DNA of 64,000 nucleotides, taken from Hyphomicrobiales bacterium (GTDB taxonomy: Bacteria > Pseudomonadota > Alphaproteobacteria > Rhizobiales > CBDCVD01). Of the stretch, positions 23,019 to 50,876 are shown piece after piece. Position 1 is the stretch's first letter. Every line of letters starts with the position of its first letter. The notes under the pieces were generated by a model. That model saw only the letters and a program-made list of their open reading frames with translations, was not told where the DNA came from and did no database searches. Made by a program: the position numbers and the translations under genes. The stretch lies in contig OZ244974.1 of assembly GCA_965222955.1 (NCBI GenBank), positions 1,920,226 through 1,984,225 of the forward strand. Reading direction: 5' to 3'.

Positions 23019-23044
23019 TTTGCACCATGTTCGTTACGCCAGAT

Positions 23045-23674: not shown

Positions 23675-23833
23675 CCGCGGCCAGGCACACTCCGGTATTG
23701 AAAGCCACTTGCAAGATACGTCTGGAGCGCCTGGGGCTTCGGCGACACGCCAATCGCCAGCCCCGCCGCACTGAATTGTCCCGGTTCAATGCGGCGGAAT
23801 ACAGGGGATTGATGGCAACGCCAGACCTTGGCC

Positions 23834-25567
23834 TTACTGGGCCCAGCGGGTTATCAGTTCGTCATAATTGACGGTCTTGCCCTGGGGCTTCTCGTTTGCA
23901 AGTTTTGCTTTCGCGCCGCCCTTGCCGAGCCACTCGGAAGGGTCTTTAGGTTCGTTCAGCCGGGGTCCGCAGCCGCCATAGACATTTTGCGCCTCGTCGG
24001 CACGTTGCATCCGCGCCATGGTGACGTCCATTTCCTCGGCGAGACGATCCATCGCCTGCTGCGGCGTAAACGCGCCGGAGTTCACATCCCCGATCTGCTG
24101 CCACCAGATTTGCGCCAGTTTCGGATAGTCGGGCACATTCACGCCCGTGGGCGACCAGGCGACACGATCGGGCGAGCGGTAGAATTCCACAAGACCGCCG
24201 AGTTTTGGGGCGCGCTCGCTGAAGCTCTCGTGGTTGACGGTGGAGTTGCGAATGAATGTAAGGCCCACATGGGATTTCTTGACATCAACGGTTTTGGATA
24301 CGACAAACTGGGCGTAGAGCCAGGCGGCCCTGGCCCGATCCTCCGGTGTGGATTTCAAAAACGTCCAGGATCCCACGTCCTGATAGCCGACTTTCTGGCC
24401 TTCTTCCCAATAGGGACCATGGGGAGATGGCGCCATGCGCCACAGGGGGTTCCCGGCATCATCGACGGTATTGTTGCCCTCGGATTTCGGCTTTACCATA
24501 TCCGCGGTAAAGGCGGTGTACCAGAAGATCTGCTGGGCGACATTGCCCTGACTTAGCGCTGGCAAGGACTGGTAGAAGTCAAAGCTCGCGGCGCCTGGGG
24601 GGGCATATTTGCGCAACCACTCGTCCCATTTGCGGATGGCGTAAACCGCCGCCGGGCCGTTTGCCGCGCCGCCGCGGGACACGGATGCCCCGGCCGGATT
24701 ACACGAACCCGCCTCCATACGGATGCCCCATTCGTCGATGGGCACCCCGTTCGGCTCCCCCTTTGAGCCGGCGCCCGCCATGGAAAGCCATGCATCCGTC
24801 ATGCGCCATCCCAGATCGGGGGCCCGTTTGCCGTAATCCATATGGCCGTAGATATCCACACCATCGATGTTTTTGACATCGTTGGAGAAAAACTCGGCGA
24901 TATCCTCATAGGCAGACCAGTTGACCGGTACTCCCAGATCGTAACCGTATTTGGCCTTGAACGCCGCCTTGTGTTTGGGATCATCGAACCAGTCCTTGCG
25001 AAACCAGTAAAGGTTGGCGAACTGCTGGTCCGGAAGCTGGTAGAGTTTTCCATCCGGTCCGGTGGTAAATTGCGTGCCCATGAAATCGTCAAGGTCGAGT
25101 CCCGGATTGGTTACGCTTTTCCACGGACCGGCAATAGCATCGCTCAGATTGTAGGTCAGTTGCAGACGCGAATGCGTCCCGATCAGATCCGAATCGTTGA
25201 CATAGGCATCATAGAGATTTCGTTTGGTTTGCATTTGCGTCTGCACCGCCTGGACAACTTCGCCTTCGCCCAGGATTTGGTGATTGACCTTGATGCCGGT
25301 GATTTCCTCAAAGGCCTTTGTCAGAACCTCGGATTCGTAGCTATGGGTCGGAATGCCTTCGGACAGGACATTGATTTCCATACCCTTGAAAGGCTCTGCC
25401 GCCTTGATGAACCATTGCAATTCGGCAAGCTGCTCCGCCTTGGTTAGCGTCGAGGGCTGAAACTCGTTATCGATCCACTTTTTTGCCGCAGCCTCATCCG
25501 CCTGCGCAGTGGTACCGCCGGCCATCAGCGCCATGCTCGTGATGGCGCAAAGAAGATGCTTTCGCAT
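23834..25567 (-). CDS. Extracellular solute-binding protein of the CUT1 ABC transporter (large, about 577 aa, glycerol/polyol type)
   Basis: Signal peptide MRKHLLCAITSMALMAGGTTAQA. Family-1 SBP pattern. It is the first gene of the co-oriented cluster. Confidence 0.8.
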   Translation of the reverse strand: MRKHLLCAITSMALMAGGTTAQADEAAAKKWIDNEFQPSTLTKAEQLAELQWFIKAAEPFKGMEINVLSEGIPTHSYESEVLTKAFEEITGIKVNHQILGEGEVVQAVQTQMQTKRNLYDAYVNDSDLIGTHSRLQLTYNLSDAIAGPWKSVTNPGLDLDDFMGTQFTTGPDGKLYQLPDQQFANLYWFRKDWFDDPKHKAAFKAKYGYDLGVPVNWSAYEDIAEFFSNDVKNIDGVDIYGHMDYGKRAPDLGWRMTDAWLSMAGAGSKGEPNGVPIDEWGIRMEAGSCNPAGASVSRGGAANGPAAVYAIRKWDEWLRKYAPPGAASFDFYQSLPALSQGNVAQQIFWYTAFTADMVKPKSEGNNTVDDAGNPLWRMAPSPHGPYWEEGQKVGYQDVGSWTFLKSTPEDRARAAWLYAQFVVSKTVDVKKSHVGLTFIRNSTVNHESFSERAPKLGGLVEFYRSPDRVAWSPTGVNVPDYPKLAQIWWQQIGDVNSGAFTPQQAMDRLAEEMDVTMARMQRADEAQNVYGGCGPRLNEPKDPSEWLGKGGAKAKLANEKPQGKTVNYDELITRWAQ

Positions 25568-39137: not shown

Positions 39138-40016
39138 TCAGTGGGCCTTTGCCGATTTCATGAACACTCCAACCGCGGCAGCGAAGCTCCGATCCTTCAG
39201 ACAGATTGCAAATGTCTGACCGGTGATCTTATGCGCCGCCAATCGCAGGACTTTGGTGTTGAAGCCGGGCAGAACCTCGTTTTCGACAATTACCCCAAGG
39301 CCAAGCCCCGCCGCGGCGGCCGCGCATATGCCTTCGCGGCTACCGACCTCAATGATCGCCTTTGGCTGACAGTTCTTTTCCTCAAGAAATCTCTGGAATA
39401 ATGCCCGGGTTTGCGAGCCTTGCTCGCGCAAAAGCAGCACTTCGTGACGAAGAGATTCAAGAGAGAGCTCCCCGACCGCTGCGGCAGGATGCGCCTCGCT
39501 ACCTATCAGTACAACTTCCGGATTTGACAATGCGATGCACGCGCAGTCAGGGTAGTTGCCATCGCCACCCAGAAAGGCAACATCGACCTCACAGGAGCGG
39601 AGCATATCCAGAACCTGCTGCGAGTTACCGAAATGCATCGATATCTGAATGCCCGGATGGCCCTTGCGGAACGCCGCGATACACCGCGTTGCATCGCTCG
39701 GCGCGCTGGCGGCGATTCGCAGAACGCCCACATGCGCGCTTGCCCCTTCCTTTAGATACTCGACCGCATCATTCTCCAGGGCAAACAGCCGGCTTGTGAT
39801 CTCAAACAGCCCTTCGCCATAGGGCGTTACGCGCAGCTTTCGCCCGCGGCCGCGATCCAGAAGCAAAACCCCATAGCTCTTTTCGAGATTTGACACCTGT
39901 ATTGTCACAGTCGGTTGCGCGCGGCCGATCTTGCTGGCGGCTTTTGAAAAACTGCCGTAGCGGACAACCGCGTTGAAACATCTGAGTTCCGACAGACTCA
40001 CGAGGGCGTTCCTCAA
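39138..40016 (-). CDS. LysR-family transcriptional regulator
   Basis: 292 aa. The N-terminal HTH is LSELRCFNAVVRYGSFSKAASKIGRAQPTVTIQVSNLEKSYG. It is divergent from the ABC/catabolic operon. Confidence 0.9.
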   Translation of the reverse strand: MRNALVSLSELRCFNAVVRYGSFSKAASKIGRAQPTVTIQVSNLEKSYGVLLLDRGRGRKLRVTPYGEGLFEITSRLFALENDAVEYLKEGASAHVGVLRIAASAPSDATRCIAAFRKGHPGIQISMHFGNSQQVLDMLRSCEVDVAFLGGDGNYPDCACIALSNPEVVLIGSEAHPAAAVGELSLESLRHEVLLLREQGSQTRALFQRFLEEKNCQPKAIIEVGSREGICAAAAAGLGLGVIVENEVLPGFNTKVLRLAAHKITGQTFAICLKDRSFAAAVGVFMKSAKAH

Positions 40017-40026
40017 TAATATTTAT

Positions 40027-40049
40027 GCAATAAATATTAATCTAAAAGT
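40027..40049. promoter_or_regulatory. Perfect AT-rich palindrome in the LysR/operon divergent spacer (candidate LTTR operator)
   Basis: TAATATTTAT-GCA-ATAAATATTA has 10-bp perfect arms. It lies 11 bp from the LysR start codon. Confidence 0.4.
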
Positions 40050-40154
40050 TATCAATTATGCAAATGATTTTTCTCTGCGTAAACTCTCCTGGCCTATGAC
40101 GACAACGGGTGTGCAGTCTGTTGGCGTGCGCATTAAAACCTGGGAGGACCCCTG

Positions 40155-41327
40155 ATGAAGAAAACCATTTTGACAACGCTCGCGGCAGCGATGCTCTCAT
40201 CTTTCACCGCCTTTACGGCGTCGGCCGAGCCGATCAAGGTTGCCTGGCTCAGTTTCGGAATAAGCCACGAGTGGTTCCGCTCACTGTCGATATTCGCTGA
40301 AAACGAAGCCAAACGCATCGCCGAACGGGACGGGGTTACGTTCGAGTTTGTCATCAAGGATGGAGCGCGCAATATCCAGACCCAGTTGCAGCAGATCGAC
40401 GATCTGATCGCGCAAGGGGATGTGGATATCATCTATTTCGAGCCGATTGACCAAAATGCCCTGGTGCGCGCCGTTAAACGGGTAAATGACGAACTGGGTA
40501 TCCCCATCGGCGCGGCCGGAATCGTCACCAATGGCGGTCAGTACCTTTATGTGGGTCTCGACAATGTTCAGGCGACCGAACAGGTTGGCACCGCGCTTGC
40601 GGACCTGCTGGATCGCAAATACGGCAAAGGTCAATGGCCCGCAACCGGCAAGATCATTGAAATCTGGGGACCTGCGGGGATATCGATCACCGACGACCGC
40701 CACGCCGGTTTCCGCAATACTTTCGAGCCGCGTCTGGCGGAAAACCCCGGCGTCGAGATTGTAAACGGTACCGGGAACTGGGATCCGGCGACCGCGTTCA
40801 AGGCAGCCAGTGACCTGATCTCACGCTACGGCGATCAGATCATCGGTGTTTACACCCATGACGACCCATCGGCGACGGAAGGGGTGGTCCGCGCCCTGGA
40901 ACTGGCCAATATGCAGTACCCGGTCGGTCACGAAAAGCACATACCGATTGTCAGCTATGATGGCACAAAGACCGGCTTACAGTCGATCCGCGACAGGGAA
41001 GTGGACGTAATCACCGAGCAGCCGGCCCTGGGCTATGCGACGCTGGTCATGCGCTATCTCTATGAGTGGCACAAGAACGGCATCGATGCGCTGCCCAAGG
41101 CAGGAACAACGCTGGAACTGGATACGTTGAGGGAGATGTTCGTCGATGAAACCGGTGTGCAGACCTGGGGGCCGGTTGAAGTGCGCAAGGGTCCGAACTG
41201 GGACGGTATCTGGCTTGCGCCCAAAAGCCCCCTGATTCCAACCGAAGTTGATCCCTATGCGCAAAACCAGTGGGGCAACTACATGTATTTTGTCGACAAG
41301 GGTGAATTCCCCAAAAAAGACAACTGA
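40155..41327 (+). CDS. Periplasmic sugar/polyol-binding protein (PBP type I, CUT2 ABC)
   Basis: Signal peptide MKKTILTTLAAAMLSSFTAFTASA with an RbsB-like fold pattern. Confidence 0.8.
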   Translation: MKKTILTTLAAAMLSSFTAFTASAEPIKVAWLSFGISHEWFRSLSIFAENEAKRIAERDGVTFEFVIKDGARNIQTQLQQIDDLIAQGDVDIIYFEPIDQNALVRAVKRVNDELGIPIGAAGIVTNGGQYLYVGLDNVQATEQVGTALADLLDRKYGKGQWPATGKIIEIWGPAGISITDDRHAGFRNTFEPRLAENPGVEIVNGTGNWDPATAFKAASDLISRYGDQIIGVYTHDDPSATEGVVRALELANMQYPVGHEKHIPIVSYDGTKTGLQSIRDREVDVITEQPALGYATLVMRYLYEWHKNGIDALPKAGTTLELDTLREMFVDETGVQTWGPVEVRKGPNWDGIWLAPKSPLIPTEVDPYAQNQWGNYMYFVDKGEFPKKDN

Positions 41328-41518
41328 TCTTCCCCGACGGGGCGGCAAAAGGGGCGGCCCCGTCACCGGAAATCCAAGACATGACACGCTCCGGGCAGGC
41401 TCACGTGTCGAATTGCGCATATGGATCGTTTGCCGGACCACAGGGTTGGCCAGGCAAGGAAACGGGCATCGGGATGGATACGAAAACCGCACCCGCGCAG
41501 AGAGGATAGACGAGGCAG

Positions 41519-43093
41519 ATGGGCGTGAATGTGCACAATAGCGAAGCGGAGCCTATGCCGCCGTCCGTCTACAAGGTCGATGCCATCGGAAAAAGTTACT
41601 TCGGTACCGAAGTGCTGCGCGATATCAGGTTGGAACTGCGGCGCGGCGAGGTGCATGGCATCATCGGCAAAAACGGTGCCGGTAAATCCACACTGGTCAA
41701 CATCATGCACGGTTCCGAGCCGCCGAATACCGGAACGCTGGAAATCGGCGGCCAGACCGTCGCCCACCTGACACCGAAAACAGCCCATGATATGGGCGTC
41801 GTTCTGATCCCGCAGAAAGCCAGCTATCCCTTGCAACTGACCGTCGCTGAAACACTGTTTCTGGGTGCTCACGCGGCGGGCCGGTTTGGCCTTATCGACA
41901 GGCGCCGTCTGCACGAACAAACGCGCGTTATCCTGGCGCGCATTGGGCTGGATCTCGAGCCGGATGCGTTGCTTGAGGACGTGCCGCTGGAGGAACGCCG
42001 GTTGATCGAGGTAGCCAAGGCGTTGTGGATTTTCGATGCCAGGGTGGTGATCCTTGATGAAACCACCGCCGCGCTGAGTGTCAGGCCGCGCGAGAAACTG
42101 TTCGACATCATGCGCCGGACCACCGCCCGGGAGGGGCGCTGTTTCGTCTTTATCAGTCATCGTCTGGAGGAAATGATCGATATTTGCGATCGCGTTACGG
42201 TGCTGCGTAATGGTCGGCTGGTGGGGACCGAAAATGTGCTCGGACTGACCCGCGAACGATTGGCAGAGTTGATCACCGGCGGGCGCGGCCAGGGCGCCGA
42301 AACCGCGCCCGTCAAACGCAGGATCACCATGCGAAGGTATCTTGAACTGCAAAACGTCGGCCGTAAGGGCGAGTTCTCCGACATCTCGCTTACGGTGGGG
42401 CTTGGGGAGATCGTTGGCATAACCGGTATGGTAGGCTCCGGTTATAGTGAACTCCTGCGCCATATCGGTGGTATCAGCCCCGGCGGCAGCGGCCGGATCA
42501 CCATTGACGGCCGTATGGTTCAGCCGCGTTCTCCCCGCGCAATGAAGCGGCACTCGGTGGGCTATCTGACCCACAAGCGCGAAGAGGAAGCGTTGTTTCA
42601 CGGCCTGTCCATCCAGCACAACGCCATTGGCGCTGCTTTCAGAAACTTTGCTTCAAATACGGGTATCCTCAGCATTCGCGCCGTGCGCAAGGCGGTCAGC
42701 GAGCTGAAATCCAGGCTCGACATTAAAATGGGCGAGCAGTTTGAGGCCATCGACACCCTGAGCGGCGGTAACAAGCAGAAAGTTATCGTCGGTCGTCTGT
42801 TGGGGTATGACCTTGATGTCTATCTTTTCGACGAGATTGCGGAAGGCGTTGATATCAGCGCCCGACGCGTTTTGCTGGAAACGGTGCGCGATCGCGTCAG
42901 CCTTTCGGCGGCGGTCCTCATGGCCTCAAACGTGGTGTCCGATTTAATGGAAATCTGTGATCGGATCCTGGTAATGTATCACGGTCGGATTTCGCAGGAA
43001 TTCCGCAAGGATCAATACGACGAACACGATATATACAGCGCTGTTCAAGGGTTGGATGTTGTTCCACAAGTGCACGCCGCAAAGAGCTTATAA
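41519..43093 (+). CDS. CUT2 sugar ABC transporter ATP-binding protein (fused double ATPase)
   Basis: Walker A GKNGAGKST, Walker B VILDETTAAL, and a second half with the LSGGNKQKV signature. The start is uncertain (41519 or 41555). Confidence 0.85.
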   Translation: MGVNVHNSEAEPMPPSVYKVDAIGKSYFGTEVLRDIRLELRRGEVHGIIGKNGAGKSTLVNIMHGSEPPNTGTLEIGGQTVAHLTPKTAHDMGVVLIPQKASYPLQLTVAETLFLGAHAAGRFGLIDRRRLHEQTRVILARIGLDLEPDALLEDVPLEERRLIEVAKALWIFDARVVILDETTAALSVRPREKLFDIMRRTTAREGRCFVFISHRLEEMIDICDRVTVLRNGRLVGTENVLGLTRERLAELITGGRGQGAETAPVKRRITMRRYLELQNVGRKGEFSDISLTVGLGEIVGITGMVGSGYSELLRHIGGISPGGSGRITIDGRMVQPRSPRAMKRHSVGYLTHKREEEALFHGLSIQHNAIGAAFRNFASNTGILSIRAVRKAVSELKSRLDIKMGEQFEAIDTLSGGNKQKVIVGRLLGYDLDVYLFDEIAEGVDISARRVLLETVRDRVSLSAAVLMASNVVSDLMEICDRILVMYHGRISQEFRKDQYDEHDIYSAVQGLDVVPQVHAAKSL

Positions 43094-43094
43094 G

Positions 43095-44123
43095 ATGATA
43101 CGAAGGAACAGCATCCGTCTTGTCGCAGACCACTATATCTGGTTACTGGTGATCCTGCTCCTGGTGATCGCCTCGTTGACTCTGCCGCGATTTTTCACGA
43201 TCGTGAACTTTCTGAACATTTTCTATCATACGTCGGCCATCGGCATGATGATTCTGGGTATGTCCTTCTGTCTTCTTGTCGGCAGGATGGACCTTTCGCT
43301 GGAAAGCACCTTTGCCATTGCCCCGACAATCGGGGTGTTGATGGTCTATCAATGGGCGCCGGTGCTGCCCGGATGGTCTGCGGTTCCCATCGCCCTGGCC
43401 GTGGGCGCCGCGATCGGCTTTATCAACGCGATGCTGGTGATCAGGCTAAACATCAATTCGTTCCTTGCTACCCTGGCAATGCTGATTATCCTGCGCGGCC
43501 TTCTGGTCTATATTCTGCCGCAGGGCCTGTGGGAAATCCCGGAATTGATCTCGTTCCTGGGCTCGGCACAGTTCTATATCGGCGATATCCGCTTTCCGGT
43601 CACCATTCTGATTTTTGTCTTCTTGTTCCTGCTCGCCGGTTTCATCGTCTCGAACACCGCGTTTGGCAAGGATATGATGGCCGTCGGCGCCAACCCCACC
43701 GCCGCTTTCATCGCCGGAATCAATGTCGAACGCATCTACATCATTGTCTTCGTGATCGCTGGCGCTTGCGCCGCGTTCGGAGGGGTCCTTCTGAGCGGGC
43801 GAATCGGCTCGATCCTGAACGGTATGGGTGAGGGTGATATCCTGTTGGTCTTTGCCGGAACGGTTTTGGGTGGTATCAGCCTTAATGGCGGCAAGGGCAG
43901 GATTTCCAACGCGCTTGGTGGGGCGCTGCTACTGACCACGATCTCCACCATCCTGAACTACGGCGGGTTCAGCCCGTTTCTGGTGCGGGCTTTCCAGGGC
44001 TTCATTCTTTTGGCGGCCATGATCGTCAGCGCTCAGGGGCATCTGCTCGCGCGACTGTTGCCCGCACCCGGTCAGGACGACTCAACCCGCACTGGCGTTA
44101 CAACACAACCTGAAGGCAAGTGA
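43095..44123 (+). CDS. CUT2 sugar ABC transporter permease (RbsC-like)
   Basis: The ATG is 1 nt after the ATPase stop. About 10 hydrophobic segments. Confidence 0.85.
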   Translation: MIRRNSIRLVADHYIWLLVILLLVIASLTLPRFFTIVNFLNIFYHTSAIGMMILGMSFCLLVGRMDLSLESTFAIAPTIGVLMVYQWAPVLPGWSAVPIALAVGAAIGFINAMLVIRLNINSFLATLAMLIILRGLLVYILPQGLWEIPELISFLGSAQFYIGDIRFPVTILIFVFLFLLAGFIVSNTAFGKDMMAVGANPTAAFIAGINVERIYIIVFVIAGACAAFGGVLLSGRIGSILNGMGEGDILLVFAGTVLGGISLNGGKGRISNALGGALLLTTISTILNYGGFSPFLVRAFQGFILLAAMIVSAQGHLLARLLPAPGQDDSTRTGVTTQPEGK

Positions 44124-44124
44124 A

Positions 44125-45537
44125 TTGACACGCAATACTCATACGACACTTAACGAACAACTCGGCGATCTGATCGGCGACAAAAGCAGGGTCAGTACGA
44201 CCGCCGAGGTCATCGCCGCACACAGCCACGATGCCTGGCCCGTTGCCGTCAAGGAACGCCAGGCCGGTGAACAAAACCATGCCCCGGACATTGTGGTCCT
44301 GGCGACGTCAACCCAGGAGGTCTCAAGGGTTCTGGCGTTTGCCAATGCCAATCGCGTTCCCGTTACCGCCTGGGGGCGTGGCTCTTCGGTGGTCGGCGCG
44401 CCCCTGGCGGAGGCCGGCGGCATTTGCCTCGACACATCGAAAATGAATGCGCTCGTCCATATCGATGCGCGCAATTCCACGGTTACGGCACAGGCGGGTA
44501 TCGTCGGCGGTTATCTGGAGGAATTGTTGAACAGGGAGGGGCTGACGATGAATTTCTCGCCCCAGTCGTTGCACCGTTCCTCCATTGGCGGTTGGGTTGC
44601 GACTCGCGCCACCGGCCAGTTTTCAAGCCGCTACGGCGGGATCGAGGACGCTTTGGTCGCCATTGAGGCGGTGCTGGCCGATGGCACGGTCATCAATACG
44701 CTGAAACTGCCGAGGATGTCGGTCGGCCCGGATATCAACAATATTTTCCTTGGATCCGAGGGCTGTTTCGGCGTCGTAACCCAGGTCACGCTGCGCATCT
44801 ACCCGAAGCCCGAGACGCGTCTGTTCAAAACAATCGACTTTCCCGATGTAAAAAGCGGCGTGAACGCCATGCGGGCATTTATGACAACGGGGCTAAAGCC
44901 CTTTCTGCTGCGCTTTTATGACTTGCAGGAGGCACGTTTTGCCATGCATGACGCGGCCTATCCGAATCCGGTGATGTTTCTCGGCACCGATGGGTTGTCG
45001 GACATGGCGGCGGCCGAAATGGCGGCCTGCGTCAGGGCGGCCGAAGCCCATGGCGGTGCCGTTGTGGATAACGGCGGCACCGAGGCCTGGATGAGCCGCC
45101 GATTCGACTTCTCCAAAATCGAAGACGTTCTGGGCGAAGCCGGCGGCGTCGCCGAGACCATCGAGATCAGCAGCGACTGGGATGGAATCCTGAAGACCCA
45201 TGCGATACTCAAGGAGCGGCTTGGACACGTGTCGCAACACGTGTTGGGCCACTTCTCGCACGCCTATGTCAACGGGGTATCGCTCTACATGATTCTTGTC
45301 GGCGAAGAGGCCGATCTGGAGGCTTCGCGGGCACGGATCGACGAAATCTGGCGAATTTCCATGGAAGGCGCGTTGGAAACCGGCGCTTCAATCGCCCACC
45401 ATCACGGCGCGGGTATGGCGCGGTCGCGTTATGTACGCCGATCGCTGGGCCGCGCCCATGACGTGTTAATGCGGCTCAAGGCGAGTCTGGATCCGAACGG
45501 CATCCTGAACCCGGGCAAACTCGGGTTGGGGTGGTAA
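44125..45537 (+). CDS. FAD-linked oxidase (alkyl-DHAP-synthase-like branch of the VAO/PCMH family)
   Basis: 470 aa. FAD-binding N-terminal domain (VTAWGRGSSVVG). The C-terminal GHFSHAYVNGVSLYMIL...SIAHHHGAGMARSRY resembles the AGPS-type SHxYxxGxxLYF...SHHHGVG pattern rather than the GlcD GHxGDGNxH pattern. Confidence 0.65.
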   Translation: MTRNTHTTLNEQLGDLIGDKSRVSTTAEVIAAHSHDAWPVAVKERQAGEQNHAPDIVVLATSTQEVSRVLAFANANRVPVTAWGRGSSVVGAPLAEAGGICLDTSKMNALVHIDARNSTVTAQAGIVGGYLEELLNREGLTMNFSPQSLHRSSIGGWVATRATGQFSSRYGGIEDALVAIEAVLADGTVINTLKLPRMSVGPDINNIFLGSEGCFGVVTQVTLRIYPKPETRLFKTIDFPDVKSGVNAMRAFMTTGLKPFLLRFYDLQEARFAMHDAAYPNPVMFLGTDGLSDMAAAEMAACVRAAEAHGGAVVDNGGTEAWMSRRFDFSKIEDVLGEAGGVAETIEISSDWDGILKTHAILKERLGHVSQHVLGHFSHAYVNGVSLYMILVGEEADLEASRARIDEIWRISMEGALETGASIAHHHGAGMARSRYVRRSLGRAHDVLMRLKASLDPNGILNPGKLGLGW

Positions 45538-45541
45538 AGCC

Positions 45542-47083
45542 ATGGTGCAGACCGTCCAAAACGCCGAATACGATCTGGCCGTTATTGGCGGTGGCATCAA
45601 CGGCGCCGGTATTGCCGCCGACGCGGCCGGTCGCGGCCTGAAGGTTGTCCTGCTGGAAAGCGACGATTTCGCCAGCGGGACCAGTTCGGCCTCATCCAAG
45701 CTCCTGCACGGCGGATTGCGTTATCTTGAGCAGTATGCGTTCCGGCTGGTGCGTGCAGCGCTGGTCGAACGCGAAGTGCTGCTGCACAAGGCCCCGCATC
45801 TGGTCAAACCGCTTCGCTTCGTTCTGCCGGTAACGCCCGGTATGCGGCCGGCCTGGCTGTTGCGGCTCGGGCTGTTCCTGTACGATACCATGGCGCGGCG
45901 CACGCTGCCGGCAACGCAAAGTGTCCGGCTGTCGCGCTTTGCCGACCGAATGGGGTTTCAGCCCCATCTGGAGCGGGCGTTTGTTTATTCGGACTGCTGG
46001 ACCGACGATGCGCGGCTGGTCATCGCCAATGTCCTGACCGCCCAACGTCACGGGGCGACCATCCTCGCCCGCAACCGGTTGGTCTCCGCCCGGCGCGAGA
46101 GTGATGCGTGGGCTATCGAGACGAAGAACACCGTGAACGGCGCTACCGGCACCATGCGCGCGCGCGGCGTGGTCAATGCCGCCGGGCCCTGGGTTGAACC
46201 TGTAGCCAACGCTCTGGGTATGCAATCGCGGGATTTTGCCATCCGCAAGATCAAGGGCTCGCATCTCGTTGTTCCGCGACTCTGGGAGGGCGATCATGCC
46301 GCCTTTCTGCAACTCAGGGACGGGCGCATTCTGGTCATCGTGCCATTTCACGATGACTATACGCTGGTAGGCACCACCGATGTCGAAACCGACGGGGATA
46401 TGCGCGGCATCGACATCTCGGATGCCGAAACCGAGTATCTGCTGGAGGCAATCAACAGCTATTTCGCGCGCCAGACCCGCAAGGAAGACATCGTCTGGTC
46501 CTTTGCCGGTGTGCGGCCGCTGTTCGAAACCATCGAGGCCAACACTGATAACCCCTCGGCGATCACGCGCGACTACGCGTTTCGCATTGACGACGAGGCG
46601 GGCGGAACGCCGATTCTGACCGTGCTGGGCGGTAAATTGACCACGTATCGGGAACTGGCCACCCAGGCGTTGGACAAGCTGAAGGCGTATTTTCCCCGCA
46701 TGAGCGCATCGCGCACGCAGACCGAGCCATTGGCCGGAGGGGAACTCGGCAATCTGACATTGGCGGATTTCACCCGGGAACTGCAAGGGGACTATCCGTT
46801 CCTTGCCAATACCCTGGCCTGGCGTCTGGCAAGTACTTACGGCAGCCGCGCCAGGGAACTGCTGGGTGATGCGCGCTCAATGGCTGATTTGGGGGCAAAT
46901 CTCGGTGCCGATTTTACCGAAATGGAGCTGGCGTTCCTCGTGCGGACCGAATGGGCGTACACGCTGGACGACGTGATCTGGCGGCGTACCAAACTCGGCC
47001 TTCGCCTCGATGCATCGGAAAAATCCGTCATTGCTGACCGTTTGGCGCGGCTGCATCGCAAGGGGAAACAGTTCAGTGCTTGA
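45542..47083 (+). CDS. glpD: FAD-dependent glycerol-3-phosphate dehydrogenase family (GlpD/EryB-like)
   Basis: YDLAVIGGGINGAGIAADAAGRGLKVVLLESDDFASGTSSASSKLLHGGLRYLEQ. Confidence 0.85.
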   Translation: MVQTVQNAEYDLAVIGGGINGAGIAADAAGRGLKVVLLESDDFASGTSSASSKLLHGGLRYLEQYAFRLVRAALVEREVLLHKAPHLVKPLRFVLPVTPGMRPAWLLRLGLFLYDTMARRTLPATQSVRLSRFADRMGFQPHLERAFVYSDCWTDDARLVIANVLTAQRHGATILARNRLVSARRESDAWAIETKNTVNGATGTMRARGVVNAAGPWVEPVANALGMQSRDFAIRKIKGSHLVVPRLWEGDHAAFLQLRDGRILVIVPFHDDYTLVGTTDVETDGDMRGIDISDAETEYLLEAINSYFARQTRKEDIVWSFAGVRPLFETIEANTDNPSAITRDYAFRIDDEAGGTPILTVLGGKLTTYRELATQALDKLKAYFPRMSASRTQTEPLAGGELGNLTLADFTRELQGDYPFLANTLAWRLASTYGSRARELLGDARSMADLGANLGADFTEMELAFLVRTEWAYTLDDVIWRRTKLGLRLDASEKSVIADRLARLHRKGKQFSA

Positions 47084-47897
47084 GGCGGCGATACCGGCCG
47101 ATCGGGCCATTGAGATCTATGACGGCTATTTCTTCGATCTTGACGGAACGATTTATCTTGGCGACCGGCTGCTGCCCGGCGTCCTGGAGCTTTTTCGCTG
47201 GCTCGATGACAGTGGGCGGCCCTACGCGTTTGTCACCAACAATCCCACAAAGTCGCCGACGGACTACGAAGCGCGGCTCGGCGCCCATGGCATAAATGCC
47301 GCCGGGCGGATCGTCACCTCGGCGACTGCCACCATCGCCTGGCTGACCAGGAACATGCCCGACGCGGTCGTCTATGCGGTTTCGGAACAGCCCCTGCGGG
47401 ATGCATTCGAGGCGGCGGGGTTCGAAATTTCCGATGATCCCGCGCGCATCGACGTGGTGGTGGCGAGTTTTGACAGAACATTCGAATATTCAAAACTCGA
47501 TATTGCGTTCCAGGCGCTGGCCGAGGAAAAGCGGGCCATCCTGGTGGCCACCAATCCCGACCGTTACTGCCCGATGGAGGGCCGCCTCGGCGTTCCTGAT
47601 GCAGCAGCCATTATTGGCGCCATCGAAAGCAGCACCGAAGTAAAATGCAGCCACATCTTTGGCAAGCCATCGCCCCTTCTCGCCCAGATCACCGCCGACC
47701 TGCTACAGGTCGATCTTCTGCGTTCCGTTATGGTGGGCGACCGGCTTTACACCGATATTGCCATGGCCATCGCCGCGGGAATGAGCAGCGCGCTCGTCTT
47801 GACCGGCGACAGTAATCTTGGCGAAGTCGAGGCGCTGCCCGCTGCGGATCGGCCGACGCTTTGCCTTTCTCAAATCGACGCTCTGATCCCGGCATGA
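47076..47897 (+). CDS. HAD-superfamily subfamily IIA phosphatase (NagD/AraL-like)
   Basis: GTG 47076 overlaps the glpD end. YFFDLDGTIYLGDRLLPG (DxDGT motif). ...VMVGDRLYTDIAMA. Confidence 0.8.
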   Translation: MLEAAIPADRAIEIYDGYFFDLDGTIYLGDRLLPGVLELFRWLDDSGRPYAFVTNNPTKSPTDYEARLGAHGINAAGRIVTSATATIAWLTRNMPDAVVYAVSEQPLRDAFEAAGFEISDDPARIDVVVASFDRTFEYSKLDIAFQALAEEKRAILVATNPDRYCPMEGRLGVPDAAAIIGAIESSTEVKCSHIFGKPSPLLAQITADLLQVDLLRSVMVGDRLYTDIAMAIAAGMSSALVLTGDSNLGEVEALPAADRPTLCLSQIDALIPA

Positions 47898-47913
47898 ATT
47901 GAGGGCTCCGTGG

Positions 47914-49359
47914 ATGCAAACGCCGAATTTCAAGTTCGACCCTACTGATATCGACACGTTCTATACCCGGGCCGAAGCCGTGGAGGGGCGCGCGCTTGGA
48001 GCGTCGGAACTGCGCAAGGTCATCTGCAACGAGAACGCCATCCTCGAATTACCCGGGATCATTCGGCTCTGCCAGCACGACGACCGGCCACGGGCGATCA
48101 TCATTCAGGATGCCACGCCCATGCGGCGCGGCGACTGTGCGTTGAAACCCCTGGTGCGGCGCATACTCGAAGAGGCGGGAATTGCTGTCGAGACACATAC
48201 ATTCGAGACGGCAGGCGATCAGTTGAAGACCACGCCCGAGACAATTGCCGAGGCCCGTTCAAAAATTGATCCAGGTGCGGCGATTGTCGCTCTGGGTTCA
48301 GGCTGTATAACGGACATCGTAAAACACGCATGTTTCGAGGTTGAGGAACAACGTGGCGTCCAGCCGGTTCTGATTGCCGTTCAAACCGCCAACTCCGTTT
48401 GCGCGTTCACCTCGCGGATGACGGTTATTACGAAAAACGGCGTCAAACGCACTGTGCCGAGCCGCCTGGCGAATACACTGATATTGGACACGCAGATCCT
48501 GCGGGACGCACCGGCGCTATACAGGACAGGCGGGCTTGGCGATGTCGCCGTCGGTGCCTCGACGTTCGCCGATTTGCAGCTTGCCGACGATCTGAATATG
48601 GGCGCGTGGAACCAGACCGCCTACGAAAGCAGCGTCGATTTGCGCGAAATCCTGCTATCGGGTCATCCGGTAATTCGCGATACGGGGCTTGCGGGACAGG
48701 AGGCGGCAGGAAAGCTGTTGACCATTGCCGGACTGGCCCTGACCGTATCCGGCGACAGCGCGCCGCTGTCCGGATATGAACACGTTACGTCTCATATGCT
48801 CGACATGGTGGCAAAGGCAAATGCGCGGCCCGTGTCCAATCACGGTCATCAATGTGCCCTGGCCACTGTTCTGACCCTGTTGCTTTATGACGAGGTGAGG
48901 GCGCGTCTGGAGCCGTCGACTTTGTCTCTTCAGGCGTGTTTTCCCGAACAGGCGGACATGGAAGAGCGGATCGGAAACACGTTCAGGCATATCGACGCCA
49001 CGGGCGATGCCGCACGGGAGTGTCTTTCCGACTACACGCAAAAACTGGCGAACTGGAAGAAAAATCGCCCCGTATTCGAGAACTACCTCGCCAATTGGAA
49101 GGCGCATCGCGTGGCGCTCGAGACGCATTTGATGCCCGTCGACGCCTTTGTCAACATCCTTCGCAGCTTCGGACACCCGATGCGCTTTGAAGACCTTGAG
49201 GTTCCGTTGACGCGCGAGGAGGTTCGCTGGGCATTTTTCAACGCCCACCTGATGCGAAAACGGTTTACGATCGGCGATTTTGCCTATTTTTGCGGCATGT
49301 TCGATGAAGAAACCTGCACCAGGATATTCCAAAAGTTCGACGCATTGACATCAACCTGA
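47914..49359 (+). CDS. Iron-type alcohol dehydrogenase superfamily; sn-glycerol-1-phosphate dehydrogenase (AraM/EgsA)-like
   Basis: ALGSGCITDIVKHA, SGYEHVTSHMLD and NHGHQCALA are metal/NAD motifs. It has a longer C-terminus than typical AraM. The start is ATG 47914 (or TTG 47899). Confidence 0.6.
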   Translation: MQTPNFKFDPTDIDTFYTRAEAVEGRALGASELRKVICNENAILELPGIIRLCQHDDRPRAIIIQDATPMRRGDCALKPLVRRILEEAGIAVETHTFETAGDQLKTTPETIAEARSKIDPGAAIVALGSGCITDIVKHACFEVEEQRGVQPVLIAVQTANSVCAFTSRMTVITKNGVKRTVPSRLANTLILDTQILRDAPALYRTGGLGDVAVGASTFADLQLADDLNMGAWNQTAYESSVDLREILLSGHPVIRDTGLAGQEAAGKLLTIAGLALTVSGDSAPLSGYEHVTSHMLDMVAKANARPVSNHGHQCALATVLTLLLYDEVRARLEPSTLSLQACFPEQADMEERIGNTFRHIDATGDAARECLSDYTQKLANWKKNRPVFENYLANWKAHRVALETHLMPVDAFVNILRSFGHPMRFEDLEVPLTREEVRWAFFNAHLMRKRFTIGDFAYFCGMFDEETCTRIFQKFDALTST

Positions 49360-49373
49360 AACAGGGGAGCGCC

Positions 49374-50876
49374 ATGACGCACTATATCGCAGCGGCCGAC
49401 AGCGGCACGACAGGGGCCAAGGCAGTTATCTACGATCTTGCCGGTGAGCCCATGGCGGCGGCCTATCGGGAATACGGGCTGATCTTTCCGAAACCCGGCT
49501 GGGTCGATCAGGATGCAAATATGCTGCGCGATGTATGCTTCGAGGTTATCCGCGAAGCCGTGACCAAAAGCGCGATCGATCCTGCGGAGATCGTTGCCGT
49601 TTGCCTGTCGACGCAGCGGTGCACGATGGTACCGGTCGATGAGGCGGGCAACGCGCTTCGCGAGGCGATCTCCTGGCAGGACAATCGCACCGATGCGCAG
49701 TGCGAGGAAATCAGGGCCAAAATCGGCGGCGATGAATTCTACGATCGCACCGGGCTACCGGTTGCCAATGTCTGGACGTTGCCAAAGATCATGTGGCTGC
49801 GCGAACATGAGCCCACGCTCTATGCGAAGGCCCACAAGTTCGTGAATGTGCAGGCCTATCTGAACAGAGCCCTGGGCGCGGAAGGCTTCGTCGATGATTA
49901 CTCGAACGTGTCTCTTCACGGGCTCATGTCGCTGACCGATCTGGAGTGGATCGATGCGTACATTCAGGCCCTTGGCCTTGATGCGGCAAAACTGCCCCGG
50001 CTTGTCGGATCAGGCGAAAAGGTCGGTAACGTCAGTAGCAACGGCGCGGCGGCGACCGGGCTGCTGGCGGGAACCCCGATCATTTCAGGTGCCGGGGACC
50101 AGCAATGCGCCGCTGTCGGATGCAACGTCCTGAAAGAGGGGGACTGCGAGGTTACGCTGGGCACCGCCGGTGTTGCGATCTGTTCACTGGACAGACCCAA
50201 TCTCGATCCGGACCGCACCATGCCGTGCCTTGTTCATGCGCTGGCGGGGAAATACACCTGCGAGGGGCTGCAGAACGCCGCTGGCGCCTCATTCAAATGG
50301 CTTCGCAACGTGTTGCAGGAGGCGCAGGACGGCTCCGAGGTCGACTATGATCACCTGACCGGGCTGGCTGCGAGTTCGGTGCGCGGCGCGAACGGCCTGC
50401 TCTTTCTGCCCTATCTCGCAGGCGCTGCCGCCCCGCTCTGGGACGGCTCGGCACGGGGAAATCTCTTTGGCATGTCGCTTGCCAACGGCCTTGCCGATGT
50501 GTCGCGCGCGGTATTGGAGGGCATTAGCTTCGAGACGGCGATGATCCTTGAAAACTTTGCCCGGCGCGGGATCAATATTGAGAAAGTGCGTGCCTCCGGT
50601 GGCGGTGCAAAGTCGGAATTCTGGGGCCAACTCCAGGCGGACATCTACGGCTTGCCGGTTCAGCGCCTGAAGGTTGACGATGCGACCATTCTTGGGGCTG
50701 CGATACTTGGCGCAGCCGGGGCCGGCGCTTATGGGTCGGTTGAGGAGGCGGCCGATGCCATGGTTCATGCGATCAGCGAATATGTGCCCGATAAAAGTGC
50801 TTCGTGTGAATATGGTCACATCCGCAAGAGATTTACCAGTCTTTACGTCTCGCTGAAGGACGGTGGCATGTTCTGA
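49374..50876 (+). CDS. FGGY-family carbohydrate/polyol kinase
   Basis: 500 aa. IAAADSGTTGAKAVIYD, ISWQDNRT and GGGAKSEFWGQLQADIYG. Confidence 0.85.
   Translation: MTHYIAAADSGTTGAKAVIYDLAGEPMAAAYREYGLIFPKPGWVDQDANMLRDVCFEVIREAVTKSAIDPAEIVAVCLSTQRCTMVPVDEAGNALREAISWQDNRTDAQCEEIRAKIGGDEFYDRTGLPVANVWTLPKIMWLREHEPTLYAKAHKFVNVQAYLNRALGAEGFVDDYSNVSLHGLMSLTDLEWIDAYIQALGLDAAKLPRLVGSGEKVGNVSSNGAAATGLLAGTPIISGAGDQQCAAVGCNVLKEGDCEVTLGTAGVAICSLDRPNLDPDRTMPCLVHALAGKYTCEGLQNAAGASFKWLRNVLQEAQDGSEVDYDHLTGLAASSVRGANGLLFLPYLAGAAAPLWDGSARGNLFGMSLANGLADVSRAVLEGISFETAMILENFARRGINIEKVRASGGGAKSEFWGQLQADIYGLPVQRLKVDDATILGAAILGAAGAGAYGSVEEAADAMVHAISEYVPDKSASCEYGHIRKRFTSLYVSLKDGGMF

Follow-up and report, generated by a model that had tools for sequence, protein, structure and literature searches.

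Gene content and layout of the locus

Within the window (i.e., the whole 64-kb stretch of DNA that was analysed), nine ORFs were confirmed between positions 39138 and 50876. They are given here with two noncoding features and a separate transporter:

18910-25567, minus strand: GlpSTPQUV-type CUT1 ABC transporter, 14 kb upstream and outside the operon
39138-40016, minus strand: LysR-family regulator (HTH_1 and LysR_substrate), divergent from the operon
40015-40063, no strand assigned: putative LysR operator in the 138-nt divergent promoter region, read from sequence
40155-41327, plus strand: periplasmic solute-binding protein (SBP) of CUT2 type (Peripla_BP_4, Pfam)
41336-41364, plus strand: GC-rich hairpin (RNA fold) with no T-run, just past the SBP stop codon
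41519-43093, plus strand: CUT2-type ABC ATPase with two fused ABC domains (two ABC_tran stretches)
43056-44123, plus strand: ABC permease (BPD_transp_2; Pfam and NCBIfam AraH/RbsC-like matches)
44125-45537, plus strand: AGPS-like FAD enzyme of the short bacterial YgcU family (FAD_binding_4 and FAD-oxidase_C)
45542-47083, plus strand: GlpD, aerobic sn-glycerol-3-phosphate (G3P) dehydrogenase (DAO and DAO_C; NF008899 equivalog)
47010-47897, start codon uncertain, plus strand: HAD-IIA phosphatase of AraL/NagD/PGP type (TIGR01460)
47899-49359, probable start 47914, plus strand: AraM/G1PDH-like NAD(P) oxidoreductase (Fe-ADH_2)
49374-50876, plus strand: FGGY kinase (FGGY_N and FGGY_C)

Downstream of the divergent LysR gene and a palindromic operator-like site, the genes are closely packed into a single unit. 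The SBP and ATPase genes lie 191 nt apart, and from the ATPase to the kinase gene the successive junctions are a 38-nt overlap, +1 nt, +4 nt, an overlap, +1 (or +16) nt and +14 nt. The original prediction was therefore correct in stating that these genes overlap or are spaced by at most 16 nt, and its proposal of a single LysR-linked transcription unit with a CUT2 transporter is supported. Its domain calls were each confirmed by Pfam and NCBIfam, and the family calls survived profile, structure and fold tests. The start of the HAD gene is uncertain since its homologues are shorter (276 aa) than the ORF (295 aa), and that of the AraM-like gene is probably 47914 since the database copy of the protein (P0001) counts 481 aa. 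Because the flanking genes are of a housekeeping nature (purK, a TPR protein, rsmI, an LppC-like gene and mgtE), the cluster boundaries were placed as listed. The same nine-gene operon was found at 55-77% protein identity in Paracoccaceae, Marinosulfonomonas, Gammaproteobacteria MAGs and independent metagenome contigs; since the gene order recurs in such independent contigs and MAGs, the operon is real, not a product of chance, and conserved in bacteria.

The LysR regulator is 61% identical to the copy in a related locus (L003) and ca. 40% identical to the LysR genes adjoining the AGPS-like gene in Nitratireductor (L061) and Bradyrhizobium (L062), while its best NCBIfam match (phn_lysR, 230 bits) stayed under the cut-off of 341. 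The divergent promoter region contains a 27-bp near-palindrome (40015-40041) with a T-N11-A core (ATTTATGCAATAAAT, 40021-40035), a repeat of the half-site TTATGCAA at 40056-40063, and one sigma-70-like match on the minus strand (40083-40055). Judged from the letters alone, the 40015-40063 element is a putative LysR operator; related loci carry AT-rich palindromes in the same position, but different ones. Finally, the RNA fold of 41326-41380 reached -25.9 kcal/mol (z = -2.56; an equally stable fold arose in 3 of 200 shuffles), and the hairpin at 41336-41364 likely acts as an intra-operon stabiliser or attenuator raising SBP over the downstream genes.

Transporter, AGPS-like flavoenzyme and GlpD

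The SBP belongs to a rare family (of 5.8 billion sequences, only about 20 clusters are at least 48% identical), for which no close solved structure was found (best match 2ioy, E 1.6e-16). The best NCBIfam matches of the ATPase (AraG, AlsA and RbsA) were all under their cut-offs. SBP homologues (48-55% identity) occur in clusters with TIM, RpiB and a GlpK-type kinase. At one such locus (L068), orthologues of the transporter (SBP 55%, permease 51% and ATPase 43% identity) accompany a kinase scoring 629 bits on the GlpK equivalog model, above its cut-off of 590, together with a G3P-oxidase-like DAO protein and TIM. The transporter relatives at L068 and L069 are also linked to TIM plus RpiB, and this RpiB additionally scores on the D-erythrulose-4-phosphate isomerase model. 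The separate CUT1 transporter at 18910-25567, which no catabolic enzyme genes adjoin, matches that of a Nitratireductor operon by tblastn (SBP 57%, permeases 54% and 70%, ATPases 39% and 53%, DUF2160 39%) and is possibly linked functionally to the operon.

The AGPS-like call for the flavoenzyme held, with AGPS as best PDB sequence match (2uuu and 4bby; E 8e-48 vs. 4.5e-35 for D-lactate dehydrogenase) and the predicted C-terminal motif present as FSHAYVNGVSLY...AHHHGAG. Residues R263, H379, Y381, Y388 and H425-427 are invariant, and AGPS residues R419, Y578 and HHH615-617 are all conserved, mapping to these invariant positions. In contrast, other residues stand at the positions of the LDHD metal ligands H405 and E442: the enzyme has the active site of AGPS, not that of D-lactate dehydrogenase. 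Its AF2 model (pLDDT 86) superimposes on AGPS with a TM of 0.85-0.87, but the AGPS N-terminal domain is missing and the alignment begins at AGPS residue 183. It is 34% identical to the uncharacterised E. coli YgcU, placing it in a common short bacterial family.

Among 54 metagenomic loci (of at least 6 kb) with an AGPS-like gene, GlpD was present in 28, a GlpK-like kinase in 18 and a Cof-type HAD in 11. The order is FADox-GlpD-GlpSTPQUV-type transporter-FGGY in the Nitratireductor operon and FADox-hyp-GlpK-GlpD on a Microbacterium plasmid, and a further locus (L007) follows the same glycerol-gene pattern. The LysR/AGPS-like/GlpD module is a widespread satellite of glycerol operons, and its AGPS-like member recurs in this role. 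Nevertheless, the family is not tied to glycerol alone, since it is also found with PdxA2-like and DUF1537-kinase genes, a neighbourhood that we read as a four-carbon acid-sugar context.

With 49% identity to its E. coli counterpart over 492 residues and 667 bits on the NF008899 equivalog model of NCBIfam (cut-off 360), GlpD is a canonical sn-glycerol-3-phosphate dehydrogenase, which makes G3P to DHAP one step of the route. These values go against the original proposal of a GlpD/EryB-type enzyme forming an eryA-eryB mirror with the kinase, although the comparison with EryB is indirect (plasmid GlpD paralogues form a separate tier at only about 31% identity). EryC, TpiA2 or RpiB equivalents were absent from the 64-kb window.

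The kinase, phosphatase and AraM-like trio

The FGGY kinase stayed under both relevant NCBIfam cut-offs (XylB, 332 bits vs. 380; GlpK, 272 bits vs. 590) and, unlike GlpK, lacks three glycerol-binding residues (E84C, Y135V and F270V at E. coli GlpK positions). It belongs to a distinct subfamily that is neither GlpK nor XylB. Its orthologues (43-52% identity) adjoin an AraM-like gene at two loci (L007 and L059) and also end the Nitratireductor operon, and no plasmid homologues above 35% identity were found.

As predicted, the phosphatase is of the HAD-IIA type, with all four motifs (DLDGT, VTNN, GKP and GDRLYTD) intact and 124.7 bits on TIGR01460 (cut-off 100). It also reached 141 bits on TIGR01452 (the phosphoglycolate/pyridoxal-phosphate phosphatase family), under the cut-off of that model; one member of this family is a glycerol-3-phosphate phosphatase. 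The G1PDH/AraM-like assignment of the next gene holds by fold: its AF2 model (pLDDT 92) best matches B. subtilis AraM (9h4x, TMt 0.86) and then M. jannaschii G1PDH, and the protein is closer to G1PDH than to GldA. Its three putative metal ligands, D210, H294 and H310, are invariant. Nevertheless, the G1PDH model NF002022 was matched weakly (95.6 bits vs. a cut-off of 413), and because of this distance sn-glycerol-1-phosphate (G1P) is perhaps not its substrate. With only 118 representative clusters at E<=1e-30 (among 1.84 billion), the enzyme represents a rare, distinct subfamily of ca. 485 aa.

The FGGY, HAD and AraM-like genes form a coupled trio, lying side by side in Proteobacteria, Solirubrobacterales, Rubrobacterales, Anaerolineales and Shinella. 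In other lineages, including other phyla, the HAD makes up the N-terminal part of a fusion with the AraM-like enzyme (P0040, P0059 and P0082), and one FGGY-FeADH fusion was found (P0284), both of which strengthen the proposed parallel with araL-araM. The AraM-like gene further adjoins a GpsA-type G3P dehydrogenase gene in Pseudonocardia and an aquaporin gene in Rubrobacter. In other lineages class II aldolase-fold proteins take the place of the flavoenzyme beside the AraM-like core, the two never occurring together, and the Shinella locus carries an extra class II ketose-bisphosphate aldolase; a formaldehyde dehydrogenase gene follows 2 kb downstream.

Proposed route and its comparison with known pathways

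Our tentative reading, to which we assign a probability of roughly 0.4, is that the operon serves to degrade glycerol, or a polyol resembling it, to DHAP via two stereo-complementary dehydrogenases. Of the substrates originally suggested, the commonest neighbours of the flavoenzyme (GlpD and a GlpK-like kinase) and the transporter orthologues that accompany a GlpK-equivalog kinase (L068) speak for glycerol or an analogue of it rather than a tetritol; a C4 polyol is less favoured. Under LysR control, glycerol or a small polyol with a glycerol skeleton would be imported and converted to DHAP through phosphorylated intermediates, the FGGY kinase presumably carrying out the phosphorylation. Two non-homologous dehydrogenases may then oxidise the carbon beside the phosphate ester with opposite stereochemistry, GlpD acting on G3P-type centres with electrons passing to quinone and the AraM-like enzyme on G1P-type centres with NAD(P), so that both branches would meet at DHAP or a C1-substituted DHAP. 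The flavoenzyme could act on a DHAP-type ketone at the carbon beside the carbonyl (i.e., the position activated by AGPS), and the phosphatase might strip the phosphate from a G1P-type ester, thereby serving as a relief valve or ending a side branch. What three of the enzymes do, and on which substrate the operon acts, is inferred. With glycerol itself, the kinase, GlpD, G1PDH-like enzyme and phosphatase would constitute a futile cycle, which implies that the substrate is not plain glycerol or that some of the enzymes are accessory. Against this reading also stand the seeming redundancy of up to three dehydrogenases for similar substrates, the lack of three GlpK glycerol-binding residues in the kinase, the low G1PDH-model score of the AraM-like protein, the linkage of transporter relatives to TIM plus RpiB (together the hallmark of tetrose-phosphate isomerisation), and the PdxA2-like/DUF1537-kinase context of the AGPS-like family.

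The linkage of transporter relatives to TIM plus RpiB instead suits a rather unlikely tetritol (erythritol/threitol) pathway, in which the kinase and GlpD would act like Brucella EryA and EryB to give a tetrulose phosphate (hydroxymethyl-DHAP), the AraM-like enzyme would take the opposite enantiomer, and the flavoenzyme, by enolising the carbon beside the ketone, would replace the EryC/TpiA2/RpiB isomerases or a ketotetrose-phosphate aldolase. The larger kinase pocket compared with GlpK, the isomerase-model score of RpiB, the exchange of the flavoenzyme for aldolase-fold proteins and the Shinella aldolase and formaldehyde dehydrogenase genes agree with it; the E. coli-like GlpD, the GlpK-type kinase beside the L068 transporter, and the lack of TIM, RpiB, EryC-like and aldolase genes from the window do not. 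Another reading is an ordinary glycerol operon with protective accessories, in which transporter, FGGY (as atypical glycerol kinase) and GlpD catabolise, the HAD disposes of surplus glycerol phosphate, and DHAP-derived by-products fall to the AraM-like and AGPS-like enzymes. For B. subtilis AraL a role in detoxification has been put forward, the flavoenzyme and Cof-/HAD-type phosphatases recur beside glpK-glpD, the window's GlpSTPQUV-type transporter has no enzymes of its own, and in Nitratireductor the FADox, GlpD and a kinase of the window type surround such a transporter. We nevertheless hold this unlikely: the flavoenzyme has no metal site of the D-lactate/2-hydroxyacid dehydrogenase kind, the AraM-like enzyme is closer to G1PDH than to GldA, the kinase lacks the glycerol-binding residues of GlpK, and the fusions favour consecutive catalytic steps over loose housekeeping.

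Quite unlikely, too, is a metabolism of G1P in which the trio makes or removes this compound (glycerol to G1P to DHAP, or DHAP to G1P to glycerol) while GlpD handles G3P, both enantiomers being used or interconverted. AraM and archaeal G1PDH are the best structural and sequence relatives, the phosphatase resembles the TIGR01452 family, and the AraM-like gene neighbours GlpD here and GpsA in Pseudonocardia; moreover, bacterial PlsY and PlsC accept G1P, G1PDH is its sole known source (PMC13400652), and marine bacteria import it (PMC12718374). However, the AraM-like protein fell far short of the G1PDH cut-off, the CUT2 transporter is of the sugar/polyol kind and does not import phosphate esters, routing glycerol via G1P brings no evident benefit, and this scheme gives no account of what the flavoenzyme does. 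Ether-lipid biosynthesis would have the AGPS-like enzyme make alkyl-DHAP, the AraM-like enzyme reduce it and the HAD dephosphorylate the product to alkylglycerol, with glycerol uptake, kinase and GlpD supplying DHAP. A reductase and a phosphatase are the steps expected after alkyl-DHAP, and the catalytic residues of AGPS are retained. A contribution of Agps to the ether lipids of M. xanthus is cited in a preprint (bioRxiv 10.64898/2026.06.23.733905). This is very improbable given the missing AGPS N-terminal domain, the absence of acyltransferase and fatty-acyl reductase genes in or near the operon, the catabolic layout (a LysR regulator, and a gene start 1 nt past a sugar-type permease gene), and a family that accompanies glpK-glpD, PdxA2 and ETF genes but not lipid genes.

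No characterised pathway matching the operon gene for gene was found, in agreement with the original remark that no catabolic route could be named for it. The AGPS-like flavoenzyme and the kinase/phosphatase/G1PDH-like trio stand as two uncharacterised enzyme sets. In E. coli, YgcU is encoded near an FGGY kinase (YgcE), together with a putative antiterminator (YgcP). In our view, the operon joins two modules that are also found apart, i.e., LysR/AGPS-like/GlpD and FGGY/HAD/AraM-like.

Layout, control elements and recurrence of the operon

Nine genes were reproduced by ORF listing at the coordinates that had been claimed for them, and each of the family assignments in the original prediction was upheld by Pfam and NCBIfam.

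Features of the operon (genes from the ORF listing)
39138–40016, minus strand, LysR
40155–41327, plus strand, substrate-binding protein (SBP)
41336–41364, plus strand, GC-rich hairpin without a T-run, directly 3′ of the SBP stop (–25.9 kcal/mol, z = –2.56)
41519–43093, plus strand, ATPase
43056–44123, plus strand, permease
44125–45537, plus strand, FAD oxidase (AGPS-like flavoenzyme)
45542–47083, plus strand, GlpD
47010–47897, plus strand, HAD (start ambiguous)
47899–49359, plus strand, Fe-ADH_2 (AraM-like) protein (start probably 47914)
49374–50876, plus strand, FGGY kinase

The tight gene packing was found as predicted, with a gap of 191 nt between the SBP and ATPase genes and all later junctions either overlapping or spanning at most 16 nt. 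The later start of the Fe-ADH_2 gene was preferred because its database copy (P0001) is 481 aa long. Since the flanking genes (i.e., purK, a TPR protein gene, rsmI, an LppC-like gene and mgtE) are housekeeping genes, the cluster boundaries also proved to have been drawn correctly. The G+C content of the window is 57%.

The divergent region between the LysR and SBP genes contains a near-palindrome of 27 bp, with ATTTATGCAATAAAT (40021–40035) as its T-N11-A core and a repeated half-site. Among curated models, the LysR protein itself matched best to the 2-aminoethylphosphonate-catabolism model TIGR03339 (230 bits vs. a cut-off of 341), well clear of the next model at 145 bits. The hairpin at 41336–41364 probably acts inside the operon by stabilising the mRNA or by attenuation, a hairpin after the SBP gene being the usual way to obtain the binding protein in excess of the membrane components. 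Downstream of the kinase gene, no convincing, strong intrinsic terminator was found.

The same nine-gene order recurs on four freshwater metagenome contigs (L003–L006; 59–77% protein identity) and, at 55–74% identity, in a Marinosulfonomonas MAG (L012) and on one more metagenome contig (L071), with partial copies in Paracoccaceae and Gammaproteobacteria MAGs. The nearest relatives of the operon proteins likewise stem from Paracoccaceae, Marinosulfonomonas and Gammaproteobacteria MAGs. Taken with the G+C content, such relatives suggest an alphaproteobacterial host from the Rhodobacterales/Paracoccaceae group. The operon is real, conserved and rare, and not a chance assembly. Moreover, IS transposase or phage-integrase genes flank the copies on L003 (169–971 and 13496–15236), L004 (14806–15993) and L006 (1–898), suggesting that the nine-gene operon moves horizontally as one unit. 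A megablast search of the operon against plasmids yielded no match.

GlpD and the AGPS-like flavoenzyme

GlpD scored 667 bits with the equivalog model NF008899 (cut-off 360) and 650 bits with NF009906 (cut-off 352), and is 49% identical to the characterised E. coli GlpD over its full length (492 aa), while plasmid-borne (rhizobial) GlpD paralogues form a distinct tier at about 31% identity. Judged by its sequence, the operon GlpD is a canonical sn-glycerol-3-phosphate (G3P) dehydrogenase and, because of the equivalog score and the identity with the E. coli enzyme, oxidation of G3P to DHAP was taken as a real step. The original "GlpD/EryB-type" reading found no support in these values, and an EryB assignment was set aside on an indirect comparison, made with E. 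coli GlpD and the paralogue tier.

The flavoenzyme is composed of FAD_binding_4 and FAD-oxidase_C domains (Pfam), and its predicted AGPS-like nature held in profile and sequence searches: AGPS is its closest solved sequence relative (25–26% identity; phmmer E-values of 7.9e-48 for 2uuu and 2.6e-45 for 4bby, vs. 4.5e-35 for LDHD), and the catalytic residues are kept. Specifically, AGPS residues R419, Y578 and H615–H617 (guinea-pig numbering) align with R263, Y381 and H425–427, which are invariant across 13–14 members of the flavoenzyme family. In an alignment with mouse LDHD (8jdc), two of the three metal ligands are lost just as in AGPS (H405 being replaced by Y388 and E442 by H426), and the third (H398) is kept as H379. 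D-lactate/glycolate dehydrogenase was rejected because of this missing metal triad; scores with the GlcD models were far under the cut-offs. In Foldseek comparisons, the AF2 model of the flavoenzyme (pLDDT 86) matched AGPS with a TM of 0.85–0.87 (rmsd ~2.9 Å) and LDHD with 0.81–0.82 (3.8 Å); the fold comparison alone does not tell the two apart. The AGPS alignment begins only at residue 183 (mammalian) or 131 (Dictyostelium), i.e., the ~180-residue N-terminal domain of AGPS is absent, and the flavoenzyme measures 470 aa vs. 584–658 aa for AGPS. Since the active site agrees with AGPS while this domain is missing and the context is catabolic, the flavoenzyme was filed as AGPS-like, and not as AGPS. 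E. coli YgcU is 34% identical to it and carries the same motifs.

The AGPS-like family far exceeds the AraM-like family in size. Its partners in a set of 54 metagenomic loci (each at least 6 kb long) were GlpD (28/54), a GlpK-like kinase (18/54), a Cof-type HAD (11/54) and a PdxA2-like protein (9/54), and only two loci carried an AraM-like gene. One typical layout is a DeoR or YhfZ regulator followed by the flavoenzyme, a hypothetical gene in some cases, GlpK and GlpD; another is a LysR followed by the flavoenzyme and a PdxA2-like gene. In Bradyrhizobium cajani (L062, 9001–12403), the AGPS-like gene lies directly upstream of a PdxA2-like dehydrogenase gene and then a DUF1537 kinase gene, with a related LysR (41% identical) nearby. 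We read this PdxA2-like neighbourhood as a four-carbon acid-sugar context that likewise ends in DHAP. In Nitratireductor kimnyeongensis, a LysR is followed by the flavoenzyme, GlpD, an embedded GlpSTPQUV-type ABC transporter and an FGGY kinase, the identities with the window proteins being 53% (flavoenzyme), 52% (GlpD), 52% (kinase) and 39% (LysR). The YgcU/AGPS-like family is a satellite of glycerol operons, widespread in several phyla.

In E. coli K-12 (NC_000913.3, 2892657–2903374), YgcU is encoded together with the FGGY kinase YgcE, the ETF-like YgcQR, YgcN/YgcO, a putative antiterminator (YgcP) and two MFS transporters. As a model of the flavoenzyme family, this ygc cluster is tractable.

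The kinase, HAD phosphatase and AraM-like enzyme

The prediction of an AraM-like, glycerol-1-phosphate-dehydrogenase (G1PDH)-like enzyme stood for its fold and putative metal ligands, while the curated archaeal G1PDH model (NF002022) was matched only weakly (95.6 bits vs. a cut-off of 413). When the AF2 model of the Fe-ADH_2 protein (pLDDT 92) was compared by Foldseek, B. subtilis AraM came first (9h4x; E-value 1.4e-16, TMt 0.86), followed by a putative glycerol dehydrogenase of C. acetobutylicum (3ce9) and the G1PDH of M. jannaschii. Residues D210, H294 and H310, which from their spacing relative to A. pernix G1PDH we take to be the metal ligands, are invariant. The family is small, with 118 representative clusters at E ≤ 1e-30 among 1.84 billion. 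The adjoining HAD exceeds the cut-off of the HAD-IIA subfamily model TIGR01460 (124.7 vs. 100.15) and retains all four catalytic motifs (DLDGT, VTNN, GKP and GDRLYTD).

The FGGY kinase scored below the cut-offs of both the XylB (TIGR01312; 332 vs. 380) and the GlpK model (TIGR01311; 272 vs. 590). Of the glycerol-binding residues of E. coli GlpK, R83, W103 and D245 are retained in it, and three are altered (E84C, Y135V and F270V). Because of these scores and changes, the kinase was not considered an ordinary glycerol kinase: GlpK was rejected on the equivalog score and the altered binding residues, and XylB on its score and on the at most 35% identity with annotated XylB proteins. No plasmid-borne kinase homologue exceeded 35% identity.

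The surroundings of the AraM-like gene were examined at a sample of 45 GTDB-species loci and on metagenome contigs. A core of FGGY kinase, HAD and AraM-like enzyme is conserved in Proteobacteria, Solirubrobacterales, Rubrobacterales, Anaerolineales and Shinella, and the coupling of this trio is confirmed by fusion proteins joining HAD to the AraM-like enzyme (750–783 aa, e.g., P0082) or FGGY kinase to it (P0284, 1001 aa). Its further partners vary by lineage and never occur together in the sampled loci, an exclusivity that is suggestive only, because it follows phylogeny.

Partners of the kinase/HAD/AraM-like core
AGPS-like enzyme plus GlpD- or DAO-type dehydrogenase
Class II aldolase-fold proteins (Solirubrobacterales)
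228-aa phosphate-binding TIM barrel (Anaerolineales, locus L056)
GpsA-type NAD-dependent G3P dehydrogenase (Pseudonocardia)

Transport genes accompanying the core are of the CUT2 type in the window and in Shinella, of the CUT1 type in L056, and an aquaporin gene on a Rubrobacter plasmid; loci L007 and L059 have none. The window operon therefore consists of two modules (AGPS-like enzyme/GlpD and kinase/HAD/AraM-like enzyme) joined behind a CUT2 transporter.

The TIM-barrel protein of Anaerolineales (228–233 aa; L029 11444–12130, L056 4956–5657 and ~17 further loci) shows only a C-terminal standard phosphate-binding TIM-barrel motif and weak HisA/HisF-type matches. Its gene always adjoins the AraM-like gene, and lies between it and the FGGY kinase gene where both occur; it is a local alternative to the AGPS-like enzyme or the class II aldolase. 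On a Shinella plasmid (NZ_OZ000533.1, 202774–225116), the core is found with a CUT2 transporter, GlpD, a class II ketose-bisphosphate aldolase and the E1, E2 and lipoyl parts of a 2-oxo-acid-dehydrogenase-like complex, with a formaldehyde dehydrogenase gene 2 kb downstream.

Substrate, proposed route and comparison with known systems

The predicted CUT2 ABC transporter was confirmed by Pfam and NCBIfam: the SBP belongs to Peripla_BP_4, the permease to BPD_transp_2, and a single ATPase carries two ABC domains. With about 20 clusters the SBP family is tiny, and no close solved or liganded structure was found to indicate its ligand. Distant SBP relatives (48–55% identity) are found at two loci (L068 and L069). 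At L068, orthology extends to the permease and ATPase, the kinase passes the GlpK equivalog model (629 bits; cut-off 590), and genes are present for a G3P-oxidase-like flavoprotein with partner genes, TIM, RpiB, transaldolase and transketolase. By analogy with this GlpK-type context, glycerol is the favoured ligand of the SBP family. Both L068 and L069 (each with TIM and RpiB) have a conserved gene for a URO-D-family protein (376–401 aa; L068 13930–15135, L069 10262–11392) between the CUT2 permease and GlpK-type kinase genes, without an NCBIfam match.

The window harbours a further transporter, complete and 14 kb upstream of the operon:

18910–25567, minus strand, GlpSTPQUV-type CUT1 ABC transporter (577-aa SBP, two ATPases, two permeases, DUF2160)

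No catabolic enzyme genes lie next to it, and neither a canonical GlpK nor a class II aldolase gene is present within the 64-kb window. By our estimate, glycerol stands about an even chance of being the operon substrate, some other glycerol-like compound is a doubtful candidate, and a tetritol an unlikely one.

We tentatively propose, at a probability of about 0.42, that the operon converts glycerol or a glycerol-like polyol to DHAP by means of two stereo-complementary dehydrogenases. Established as a basis are a regulated operon with CUT2 uptake genes, a canonical GlpD, an AGPS-type active site, intact phosphatase motifs, a non-GlpK kinase, and an AraM-type fold (AF2 model) with putative metal ligands. 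The imported polyol would be phosphorylated by the FGGY kinase, after which GlpD (G3P-type) and the AraM-like enzyme (sn-glycerol-1-phosphate (G1P)-type) would oxidise the carbon beside the phosphate ester with opposite stereochemistry and meet at DHAP or at a DHAP substituted on C1. That ketone might be acted on by the AGPS-like enzyme, at the carbon which AGPS activates, and the HAD would remove phosphate from the G1P-type ester.

With plain glycerol, the kinase, dehydrogenases and phosphatase would together close a futile cycle. This leaves two options, a true substrate with a chiral or substituted structure or an accessory role for some of the enzymes; it is for this reason that confidence stays low and that four rivals were kept. 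A plain glycerol operon with accessory enzymes would suit the recurrence of the flavoenzyme and Cof-type HADs beside glpK-glpD genes, and sits less easily with the altered glycerol-binding residues of the kinase. For a tetritol pathway, the TIM and RpiB pair of the L068 relatives is compatible also with tetrose-phosphate metabolism, and the 64-kb window contains no TIM or RpiB gene. G1P-centred metabolism is invited by the AraM-type fold, set against the weak G1PDH score. Ether-lipid synthesis would make use of the AGPS-type active site; no acyltransferase or fatty-acyl reductase was present among the window genes examined.

A far less probable alternative is that the operon degrades sn-3-substituted glycerols, i.e., small glyceryl ethers (e.g., a deacylated betaine-lipid backbone) or similar C1-substituted glycerols. 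The kinase would then form a G1P-type phosphate ester, to be oxidised to a 1-substituted DHAP by the AraM-like enzyme, and by GlpD in the case of the mirror-image substrate. In the flavoenzyme, AGPS chemistry would follow with water acting as the nucleophile, so that the substituent leaves and DHAP is freed. If true, bacteria would possess a non-redox "etherase" that depends on flavin, and would put G1P-type stereochemistry to catabolic use.

Regarding significance, three of the five operon enzymes belong to conserved subfamilies without an assigned function. Knowledge of the flavoenzyme reaction would close a gap in a catabolic system that is among the best studied, and reveal a use of AGPS-type covalent flavin chemistry beyond ether-lipid synthesis. 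On how ordinary bacteria deal with G1P-type stereochemistry, no better lead than the trio is available, and this question bears on the "lipid divide", the bacterial G1P source and archaeal lipid head-group recycling. For both questions the operon is a compact, regulated and transferable test bed. PlsY and PlsC of bacteria accept G1P, and bacterial G1P sources remain unknown (PMC13400652); marine bacteria are reported to import G1P via dedicated transporters (PMC12718374). Together, these reports give the trio timely context.

In the literature searched, no description of this gene set was found and, in line with the original prediction, no characterised pathway matched it gene for gene; a paper on tetrose catabolism held no genes relevant to the operon. 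The erythritol pathway of Brucella and rhizobia (EryA, EryB, EryC, TpiA2 and RpiB) shares an FGGY kinase, a GlpD-family dehydrogenase and CUT2 polyol uptake, whereas the operon GlpD is canonical and EryC, TIM and RpiB genes are absent from the window. The E. coli ygc cluster (YgcU, YgcE, YgcQR, YgcNO, YgcP, YgcS and YqcE) likewise combines the flavoenzyme with an FGGY kinase and sugar-type transporters. However, YgcE is only 25% identical to the window kinase, and the cluster, likewise uncharacterised, includes partners of the ETF and ETF-QO type and lacks genes for GlpD, a HAD or an AraM-like enzyme. With AGPS of eukaryotes and Myxococcus xanthus, the flavoenzyme shares the two-domain flavoprotein fold, the catalytic Arg/Tyr/His-His-His loop and the absence of the D-2-hydroxyacid dehydrogenase metal site; it differs in its low identity, its missing N-terminal domain and its context of transporter, kinase and GlpD without lipid genes.

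The predicted parallel with araL-araM, which B. subtilis carries with araB and araD in its arabinose operon, was borne out in that a HAD-IIA phosphatase adjoins an enzyme of G1PDH fold, with AraM as the best fold match. Across lineages, FGGY, class II aldolase-fold, HAD-IIA and Fe-ADH_2 proteins cluster, i.e., the same four families as araB/araD/araL/araM. Nevertheless, the window enzyme is ~90 aa longer than AraM, is roughly 19% identical to it and fails the G1PDH model, the operon lacks arabinose genes, and AraM-like proteins are fused to HAD or kinase in other phyla. The AraM-like protein represents a subfamily of its own.

Finally, the glycerol regulon (GlpF-GlpK-GlpD in E. coli; glpD-glpSTPQUV-glpK in rhizobia) has an orthologous GlpD and the same overall scheme, in which DHAP is reached by way of uptake, a kinase and a G3P dehydrogenase, and its GlpSTPQUV-type transporter is represented in the window. 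In contrast, the operon kinase is not GlpK, its transporter is CUT2, its regulator is a LysR instead of DeoR/GlpR, and AGPS-like, HAD-IIA and AraM-like enzymes are added. The operon works like the glycerol regulon, with only the GlpD step belonging to that system, and represents a novel form of polyol/glycerol catabolic system.
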